Sequence record: PV611058
DNA: 64,000 bases
Direction: 5' to 3' (one strand)
DNA from: Escherichia phage WPEC3
Under the pieces are notes generated by a model. It was not told the DNA's origin. It made no database searches and worked only from the letters and a program-made list of their open reading frames with translations. Every line of letters begins with the position of its first letter. The stretch's first letter is position 1. Below are positions 20,015 to 20,046 of this stretch, piece by piece. The position numbers were made by a program, and so were the translations under genes.

Positions 20015-20046
20015 ACACTATTATAAAGTACTATCGCAAAAAAATG
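20015..20046 (-). promoter_or_regulatory. perfect inverted repeat AAAGTACTATC / GATAGTACTTT next to a TATAAT
   Basis: 11-bp arms, 10-bp spacer; upstream of 19716-19982; copy at 6201-6234. Confidence 0.5.

Follow-up and report, generated by a model that had tools for sequence, protein, structure and literature searches.

The inverted repeat upstream of two paralogous early genes of Escherichia phage WPEC3 is most probably (we put the chance at about 75%) the double-box version of a sigma-70-type early promoter of the terminal-repeat region of Rak2-like jumbo phages, its promoter activity being predicted. We analyzed a 64,000-nt stretch of record PV611058 (hereafter, the window), in which we call the paralogs p89 and p131 and the repeats upstream of them site A and site B (Table 1). 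The first-pass annotation of this DNA had taken the repeat for the private operator of an autoregulated DNA-binding protein, and had named a wide occurrence of the repeat, unrelated to these genes, as the finding that would speak against this. The results showed that the same repeat stands ahead of unrelated genes, namely four genes of the window, one gene of the contig L010 and at least 14 promoters of phage CBB, and that members of the gene family elsewhere lack it. The autoregulatory operator is not supported, because it fails on this point and on three of the four defining features that were tested. The elements at p89 and p131 appear from their sequence to be a duplicated promoter-plus-gene cassette of the ordinary sigma-70-type class, carrying an undescribed box, AGTACT. 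The clade-wide conserved excess of this hexamer is a more interesting observation than the operator.

Genomic context of the repeats

By sequence comparison, the window is the left end of an Asteriusvirus jumbo coliphage of the G17/PBECO4/121Q type, namely its terminal-repeat early region. A megablast search with positions 19000-23000 returned 84 phage records, headed by Asteriusvirus jumbo coliphages; the best of these were Turkey3, fEgEco12 and Ecwhy_1 at 96%, the PBECO4-type phage SP27 and, at 89%, 121Q. The identity of Asteriusvirus genomes to the window was about 96%. The record of G17 begins at the left genome end and has its p131 gene at 5757-6149, nearly the same coordinates as here, and in several relatives a direct terminal repeat annotation covers the corresponding region. 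The terminal repeat of phage Sharanji measures 20,668 bp (PMC11895373). About 75 short genes fill the first ~27 kb of the window, all of them on the minus strand. For CBB, the comparable region was proposed to be an early, host-takeover region, and the early and terminal-repeat regions of that phage contain predicted RpoD-like promoters preceded by an UP-like element (PMC5259590). Rfam and tRNA scans across the window gave no matches. More than 80% of the genes of these jumbo phages have no known function, and a published transcriptome was not found in literature searches.

Sites A and B lie in predicted promoters

Site B is AAAGTACTAT-N14-ATAGTACTTT at 6201-6234, as annotated before; site A is AAAGTACTATC-N10-GATAGTACTTT at 20025-20056, so that its earlier placement at 20015-20046 was 10 nt off. 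Viewed on the coding (minus) strand, both sites read AAAGTACTAT...ATAGTACTT-TATAAT. The reported position of the repeat, upstream of both paralogs and next to a TATAAT, was borne out, with the proximal arm overlapping a perfect TATAAT by one base at each site. The promoter scan scored site B at 12/12 (TTGACA-17-TATAAT), and its full layout, AAAGTACTAT-TTGACA-TTGCCCAG-ATAGTACTT-TATAAT, is the symmetric double-box design of other early promoters (see below) plus one or two additional bases. At site A, the scan called no sigma-70 promoter, and the best -35 matched at 2/6 positions. Neither site has a terminator between the stop of the upstream co-oriented gene and the repeat, so transcripts from the strong promoter of the DUF7249 gene (20387-20360) would run on across site A. 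With no -35 at site A, p89 probably owes most of its expression to this read-through.

The upstream regions of the two sites have ATGTAATAGAAT, ATTTAAAGTACTAT and GATAGTACTTTATAATAG in common, the 5' UTRs are unrelated and the encoded proteins are only 35% identical, which upholds the earlier view that the upstream element was duplicated with the gene. We rejected a canonical extended -10 (TGnTATAAT), because the TG in AGTACTGTATAAT is a base nearer than that element requires and a T replaces the G in the paralog promoters. A plus-strand divergent or antisense promoter at the distal arm was also rejected, its TTTAAAT having no A at position 2.

Table 1. Features of the window discussed in the text; arms and spacer of site A are named as read on the minus strand where stated.
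Feature	Coordinates	Strand	Remarks
TCAGTACTAT-N12-ATAGTACTGA, 10-nt arms	2084..2115	-	Upstream of unrelated gene 1792-2049; -10 candidate merely TGTAAT
GC-rich intrinsic terminator 3' of p131	5715..5733	-	Called by terminator scan; example of a genuine phage terminator
p131 paralog, 131 aa, phrog_8127	5756..6151	-	Site B upstream
Site B -10 hexamer TATAAT	6196..6201	-	Promoter scan
Site B proximal arm (ATAGTACTTT)	6201..6210	-	AGTACT box abutting -10 hexamer
Site B -35 hexamer TTGACA	6219..6224	-	Within the inverted-repeat "spacer"; 12/12 promoter 6224->6196, spacer 17
Site B distal arm (AAAGTACTAT)	6225..6234	-	AGTACT box abutting -35 hexamer
ATGTAATAGAAT block near site B, also at site A	6241..6252	-	Contains Met-stop end of upstream gene 6247-6570
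Double-box promoter CAGTACTAT-TGACATAGTTTG-ATAGTACTG + TATAAT, 9-nt arms	10342..10371	-	Upstream of unrelated 47-aa gene 10148-10291
Double-box promoter, like 10342 type, 9-nt arms, CATAAT	10604..10633	-	Upstream of unrelated gene 10382-10561
Double-box promoter, like 10342 type	13999..14028	-	Upstream of gene 13627-13950
More frequent double-box class AAAGTACTTGCAA-N-CAGTACTGTATAAT, box distance 20 nt	17663..17695	-	Example of the class
p89 paralog, 88 aa, phrog_8127	19716..19982	-	Site A upstream
Site A -10 hexamer TATAAT	20020..20025	-	One base common to proximal arm
Site A proximal arm (GATAGTACTTT)	20025..20035	-	AGTACT box abutting -10 hexamer
Site A spacer (ATTTTTTTGC, minus-strand reading)	20036..20045	-	No -35 hexamer; sequence and length differ among relatives
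Site A distal arm (AAAGTACTATC, minus-strand reading)	20046..20056	-	AGTACT box ~29 nt upstream of -10; invariant in 9 Asteriusvirus genomes
ATGTAATAGAAT block near site A, also at site B	20063..20074	-	Contains Met-stop end of upstream DUF7249 gene (20069-20347)
Consensus sigma-70 promoter of DUF7249 gene upstream of site A, TTGACA-16-TATAAT, 12/12	20360..20387	-	Promoter scan

AGTACT boxes recur in predicted early promoters of unrelated genes

Alignment of all GTACTnTAnAAT in the window yielded a recurrent minus-strand promoter, aAGTAyTTGACAa - N - tcAGTACTGTATAAT - agtttacatcaa - GGGGAG..CTCCCC. A catalogue of 1-23 kb comprised about 45 plausible early promoters, in which we located AGTACT relative to the -10 hexamer, counting from its first base. 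The box was located at -7/-8, abutting TATAAT, in about 28 candidate promoters; at -27, abutting a TTGCAA -35, in about 11; at -29 to -31, as AGTACTA-TTGACA (AGTACTATTGACA), in 5; and at -17, as TTGAC-AGTACT (TTGACAGTACT), in 4-6. Distal and proximal boxes occurred together in 10 promoters of the same 1-23 kb. Four double-box promoters with arms of 9-10 nt (AGTACTAT...ATAGTACT) precede unrelated genes, with the core AGTACTAT-N12-ATAGTACT at 10342, 10604, 13999 and 2084. The gene behind the third of these (13627-13950) has its paralog in the gene upstream of site B, not in p89/p131. A symmetric subclass, at 10341, 10602 and 13997, reads CAGTACTAT-TGACATAGTTTG-ATAGTACTG-(g)yATAAT, with 9-nt arms and N12, and has a decayed copy at 14289. 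Further copies of the commoner AAAGTACTTGCAA-N-CAGTACTGTATAAT class lie at 17180-17212, 16394-16426 and 12490-12522. Most other early promoters carry a GGGGAG...CTCCCC hairpin in the 5' UTR, which is absent from the symmetric subclass and from sites A and B.

AGTACT equals its reverse complement, so any two boxes make up an inverted repeat. The box-to-box distance showed a single peak at 20-24 bp (18 pairs in 1-27 kb vs about 5 per 5-bp bin elsewhere), and a genome-wide search for helical phasing of the boxes detected no periodicity other than this promoter peak. We counted perfect inverted repeats with arms of at least 10 nt and a spacer of 6-20, and found 13 register hits at 9 loci vs a mean of 1.3 in simulations under a first-order Markov null; AGTACT or GTAC was the basis of the repeat at 7 of the 9 loci. 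When the real box flanks were re-dealt among the 58 close box pairs, 2.6 ± 1.5 pairs with arms of at least 10 nt were expected vs 7 observed, the 7 including several copies of one another. Most of the repeat symmetry is a by-product of the boxes that the promoters contain, and symmetry outside the boxes is at most modestly in excess.

AGTACT is abundant and conserved across the clade

AGTACT was the most frequent hexamer in the window, with 291 occurrences vs 22.3 ± 4.7 expected from dinucleotide shuffles (13-fold); non-coding DNA contained 11 copies per kb and coding DNA 3.3. In minus-strand genes, the hexamer used each of the three frames, and the favoured 8-mers were CAGTACTG (69) and AAGTACTT (26). 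In a plus-strand array of ~390-aa paralogs, AGTACT fell mainly in frame 0 (Ser-Thr), a bias that may reflect shared ancestry. The same hexamer ranked first in G17, A4, RaK2, KP13-7, Hallingskeid, L010 and CBB, at 3.4-10 per kb; in unrelated AT-rich viral contigs, it occurred at 0.2-0.6 per kb.

We then compared the window with A4, to which it is 89.8% identical overall. The boxes were 94.7% identical per base and the remaining positions 89.5%, with a sharp conservation footprint of 6 bp. Intergenic boxes were intact in 88.6% of cases vs 65.7% for control hexamers (p ~9e-6), and coding boxes in 73.4% vs 61.9% (p ~0.04). These comparisons indicate purifying selection on the hexamer. The motif is not mentioned in the RaK2, CBB and Sharanji papers, in the promoter table of the CBB supplement, or in what full-text literature searches returned.

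The repeat and the gene family are found apart in related phages

In nine Asteriusvirus genomes, the arms and the -10 of site A were invariant. The spacer between the 10-nt arms was CATTTTTTTGCG (N12) in the window, fEgEco12, EC.P1 and SP27, CATTTTTTGCG (N11) in G17 and phAPEC6, and TGCACGGTG (N9) in A4, 121Q and TH47; EJP2 had CATTCTATGCG (N11). The 5' UTR and upstream flank of site A carried several substitutions across Asteriusvirus genomes. Site B was identical throughout the Asteriusvirus genomes compared and is uninformative either way. The spacing of the 10-nt arms is not fixed, being 14 nt at site B and 12, 11 or 9 nt at site A, depending on the genome. Loss of the -35 and changes in spacer sequence and length left both site A arms untouched in all nine genomes, so the arms seem to be constrained by something besides classical -35 recognition.

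Family members of Hallingskeid and KP13-7 are preceded by CAGTACTAT-N12-ATAGTACTG, with 9-nt arms. In RaK2, which belongs to the genus of KP13-7 and has the same 5' UTR, only the proximal box is present at the family member, and those of Kae01/Munch and L010 have the distal box only. A profile search of the CBB terminal repeat identified the family member CBB_36 (E 1.5e-35), whose promoter (aaaaaatagcTTGCATcactcgtaattatgaagTATAAT; the Porf_36 of the CBB supplement) contains no AGTACT box. At least 14 other promoters of that terminal repeat carry AAAGTACT...AGTACTTTATAAT, read as AAAAGTACT-T(T)G(A)C...-(G)AGTACTTTATAAT. L010, a related metagenomic phage contig, has an exact AAAGTACTAT-N13-ATAGTACTTTATAAT, with the 10-nt arms and TATAAT, upstream of an unrelated 99-aa gene. 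Judged from these genomes, the repeat and the gene family appear to be dissociated in both directions. A promoter with 9-11-nt arms was present in 5 of 9 lineages of the gene family (Asteriusvirus twice, EJP2, Hallingskeid and KP13-7), which may exceed the base rate of this promoter subclass and may point to some association with the family. An IMG/VR pattern scan for AAAGTACTAT-N6-20-ATAGTACTTT returned 15 loci, of which only two sites in 121Q and the one in L010 belong to related phages. We attribute the other 12 to chance, as they are longer AT-rich palindromes on unrelated contigs with no gene family and a normal AGTACT density.

The paralogous proteins show no known DNA-binding fold

BLASTP aligned p89 and p131 at 35% identity over 124 columns (E 3e-19), and both matched phrog_8127 (E 3.9e-26 and 1.5e-35 for the two paralogs), confirming that the genes at 19716-19982 and 5756-6151 are paralogous, as had been proposed. 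The strings said to be shared by the proteins were roughly as quoted, except that p131 has FYATRE and not YFATRE. The start of p131 at 6151 is backed by an AGGA ribosome-binding site and by homologues beginning MITKF. An all-against-all BLAST of the early proteins gave p89/p131 as the only pair of their family; a third candidate at 8571-8759, a tblastn word hit, was rejected as an unrelated protein in another reading frame. An exhaustive profile search for the family among 1.84 billion proteins identified 61 representatives, every one of 40-184 aa and none with an informative fusion. R9, D25, R35 and W36 were invariant in the family.

Pfam and PDB sequence searches with the whole family gave no matches, which speaks against a DNA-binding autorepressor, and structure and sequence searches with the paralogs found only uncharacterised family members. 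AlphaFold2 with family alignments predicted a beta-alpha-beta-beta unit (residues 1-40), helical linkers and a long C-terminal beta-hairpin (p131, pLDDT 74.5 and pTM 0.32; p89, pLDDT 83.0 and pTM 0.40). Neither model contained the helix-turn-helix or ribbon-helix-helix fold for which the first-pass annotation had suggested a search, and neither had a significant match among solved structures. The C-terminal hairpin is basic (DRKGNRVTVYSKRR); in the models, it could in principle serve as a nucleic-acid-binding element, and we found no evidence in favour of this.

Discussion

In these predicted promoters, AGTACT lies directly upstream of the -35, of the -10, or of both, and two boxes 20-24 bp apart form an inverted repeat automatically. 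In one subclass, symmetry extends to the inner flanks (AGTACT-AT/TGACA ... G-AT-AGTACT) and to the outer flanks (C...G or AA...TT), giving arms of 9-11 nt. The p89 and p131 promoters descend from one promoter that was copied with the gene when the cassette was duplicated. Site B is still a consensus promoter (TTGACA-17-TATAAT), and site A has lost the -35 hexamer and retained both boxes and the -10. We propose that the functional unit is the single AGTACT box rather than the pair of arms, which would fit the varying distance between the arms, the box-by-box conservation and the use of boxes in several promoter layouts. A single palindromic box would suit a symmetric dimer or a structural role in RNA polymerase binding, and a reader of the box would act on early promoters as a class, not only on those of p89/p131. 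That the site A arms have outlived the -35 fits a factor-dependent or structural role; it fits an RNA hairpin too.

A bolder reading is that AGTACT is a new cis-element of Rak2-like jumbo phages, read by a symmetric phage or host factor with the early promoters in general as its targets, the perfectly symmetric p89/p131 promoters, with their 10-11-nt arms, being its strongest paired sites. We regard this as a tentative proposal with the odds somewhat against it. The role of such a factor would be activation, shut-off or the marking of phage DNA, with its sites kept at a 13-fold genome-wide excess. A narrower form of the same proposal, in which p89/p131 themselves, given their unassigned fold and basic beta-hairpin, are the AGTACT-reading factor, is less likely and in our view very improbable.

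Three other explanations of the repeat were considered against the double-box promoter. The first is an RNA stem-loop in read-through polycistronic transcripts, serving as a processing site, stability element or weak attenuator before p89/p131. It would account for the position of both repeats directly 3' of the stop codon of the co-oriented upstream gene, without a terminator between, and for the probable dependence of p89 on read-through at a site with no -35. Predicted hairpins reach -13 to -16 kcal/mol (z -4.6 to -6.3), invariant arms enclosing a loop of 9-14 nt with changing sequence and length are the pattern expected of a hairpin, and terminator stems made of AGTACT pairs occur elsewhere, at 38150-38177, 47585-47611 and CBB Torf26. 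However, the stem is AT-rich (3/11 G-C pairs) and no U-run follows it, no Rfam family matched, and the fixed box offsets from the -10/-35 in dozens of promoters point to a role at the DNA level; the arms never vary, so they offer no compensatory change with which to test pairing. We consider the stem-loop unlikely. An intrinsic terminator was rejected, because the 3/11 G-C stem is followed by AUAAUAG and was left uncalled by the terminator scan, which did call the GC-rich one 3' of p131.

About equally unlikely is that the box pair is the operator of another phage or host regulator, with the symmetric subclass (AGTACTAT-N-ATAGTACT), including the p89/p131 promoters, as its small regulon. The arms and N12 are conserved in three genera (10342, 10604 and 13999 of the window; Hallingskeid; KP13-7), the outer flanks remain symmetric (C...G or AA...TT), and the symmetric promoters resemble sites A and B in having no GGGGAG...CTCCCC hairpin in the 5' UTR. 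Against this, sites A and B do not keep to N12 (their spacing ranges from 9 to 14), the inner AT of the distal arm follows in part from the neighbouring TTGACA, the few members are partly related by duplication, which weakens the statistics, and no candidate regulator was found.

The least probable of the three, and one that we give very little weight, has p89/p131 binding the repeat as DNA-binding dimers and repressing their own promoters from an operator duplicated with the gene: the overlap with the -10 and -35 region (the classical repressor position), the perfect conservation of the arms at both paralogs and across Asteriusvirus despite spacer changes, promoter blocks more alike than the coding sequences, small proteins whose basic C-terminal beta-hairpin could in principle contact nucleic acid, and the 9-nt-arm repeats at the Hallingskeid and KP13-7 homologues would agree with it. 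Against it, this core repeat also stands before unrelated genes of the window and of L010 and at many places in CBB, it is missing at the family members of CBB, RaK2, Kae01/Munch and L010, the distal box differs between RaK2 and KP13-7 in spite of their common 5' UTR, and a spacing of 9, 11, 12 or 14 nt would put the half-sites on different helical faces.

The double-box promoter can be set beside several described systems. Palindromic operators of autoregulated phage repressors, such as those of lambda Cro/CI at OR and of P22 Arc/Mnt, likewise place an inverted repeat over the -35 and -10, directly upstream of a small phage gene. Here, by contrast, the half-site spacing is unfixed, the same repeat is found ahead of many genes of other families, the models of the adjacent protein show neither a helix-turn-helix nor a ribbon-helix-helix fold, and family members elsewhere do without the repeat. 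T4 middle promoters consist of a MotA box at -30 and a sigma-70 -10, with no -35. Site A is like them in its perfect -10, its missing -35 and a conserved box near -35/-40, and unlike them in the sequence and position of the box, which is also present in consensus--35 promoters; no MotA/AsiA-like factor was identified here. The operator forms of TrpR (GTACT...AGTAC 8 nt apart), LexA (CTGT-N8-ACAG) and the TyrR box were rejected, as spacing or half-sites did not match in a by-eye comparison.

Sigma-70 (RpoD)-type early promoters of large virulent phages have in common with those described here the arrangement TTGACA/TTGCAA - 16-17 nt - TATAAT with an A-rich tract upstream and, CBB included, the clustering ahead of short early terminal-repeat genes (PMC5259590). 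The present promoters differ in the extra conserved AGTACT abutting the -35, the -10 or both, which lies outside any described sigma-70 element, and site A differs in having no -35. The E. coli SlmA-binding sequence, the 12-bp palindrome GTGAGTACTCAC (PMC3020112), has AGTACT as its central six bases. We rejected the boxes as SlmA sites, since GAGTACTC occurred in 0/291, G was the rarest base at -1 (7%) and the best 12-mers had 2 mismatches. The Highly Iterated Palindrome HIP1 of cyanobacteria, GCGATCGC, is the nearest described phenomenon to the AGTACT excess that we found; it too is a short palindrome, present in great excess throughout coding and non-coding DNA of the genome and conserved in a clade (PMC5861425). 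Compared with HIP1, AGTACT is a 6-mer of a phage clade, is three times denser in intergenic DNA and sits at fixed promoter offsets; this intergenic enrichment and these offsets make a transcription-linked role of AGTACT plausible.

A private operator, if true, would be a small addition to phage regulation. The comparison also carries a caution, because a palindrome that is hyper-abundant in a genome makes operator-like inverted repeats appear automatically. In the early promoters of the whole clade of ~350-kb phages, a palindromic hexamer at fixed -35/-10 positions is a common feature. If a factor reads AGTACT, the box would offer a handle on how early transcription is organised or switched off in jumbo phages, and an aid to promoter annotation.

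Abundance and conservation of the AGTACT box

AGTACT, the self-complementary hexamer found beside the -35 and/or -10 elements of early promoters, was the commonest hexamer in window 1-64000, with 291 copies against 22 expected. Its density peaked within 1-27000 and was three times higher in intergenic sequence than elsewhere, and all reading frames were used. The excess was seen in the window and in related-phage loci L019, L020, L010, L018, L023, L026 and L031-L033, and AGTACT ranked first among hexamers in every Rak2-like phage locus examined. In the comparison of the window with the related phage A4, AGTACT was better kept than control hexamers. 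The literature searched contained no description of the motif.

Promoter-associated elements and gene arrays

The results also showed several recurrent features in the window, which are listed in the table. Most early promoters were followed by a conserved 5'-UTR module (TATAAT-agtttacatcaa-GGGGAGAAnnnnTTCTCCCC), a GC-rich hairpin that opens the predicted transcripts. This module was missing at the promoters of the paralogs p89 and p131 and at the other symmetric double-box promoters of the window.

Each copy of the ORF-free element contained a hairpin doubling as the -35 carrier (GGGATTGACTCCGGTCAGTCCC) and, after it, either TATTAT or CATAAT. A conserved stretch of about 50 nt came next, in which CCCAyAGGGTGC..TGTA.C.A was invariant, and the next promoter lay beyond it. 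Rfam and tRNA searches returned no match for this element; it is a candidate repeated small RNA.

The tandem array lies on the strand opposite to the early genes, and AGTACT within it was mostly in frame 0 (Ser-Thr). The ~60-aa genes formed several BLAST-linked groups, almost without intergenic space. The second AGTACT-built hairpin was located between convergent genes.

Recurrent features of the window
Feature	Position	Strand
5'-UTR module of most early promoters, ~8-35 nt downstream from the -10 hexamer	e.g. 3250-3280, 6590-6625, 8150-8185, 12455-12490	minus
ORF-free element, ~200 nt, 6 copies	1255-1500, 4032-4251, 7203-7517, 11846-12056, 9662-9844, 19150-19397	minus
Back-to-back paralogous genes, ~60 aa, in arrays	22806-27208	minus
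Tandem array, ~17 paralogous genes, each roughly 360-400 aa	27293-47580	plus
Terminator-like hairpin, stem of two AGTACT boxes (AAATGTCAGTACT/AGTACTGACATTT), then T-run	38150-38177	
Terminator-like hairpin, stem of two AGTACT boxes (AATCCAGTACTA/TAGTACTGGATT), then T-run	47585-47611	

Cassette duplication and possible recombination

The genes upstream of sites A and B, the inverted repeats preceding p89 and p131, each have a paralog of their own, which indicates that cassette duplication is common in the terminal repeat. The gene directly upstream of site B (6247-6570) has one at 13627-13950 (40% identity), and that directly upstream of site A (20069-20308) has one at 18017-18256 (65% identity), both within the terminal repeat; gene 20069-20347 matched DUF7249. 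In phage EJP2 (L021, 260-400), a site-A-type upstream region and repeat, with spacer CATTCTATGCG, was fused to a site-B-type 5' UTR with a p131-like gene behind it (63% identity), suggesting that this chimera arose by recombination between the two paralog cassettes.
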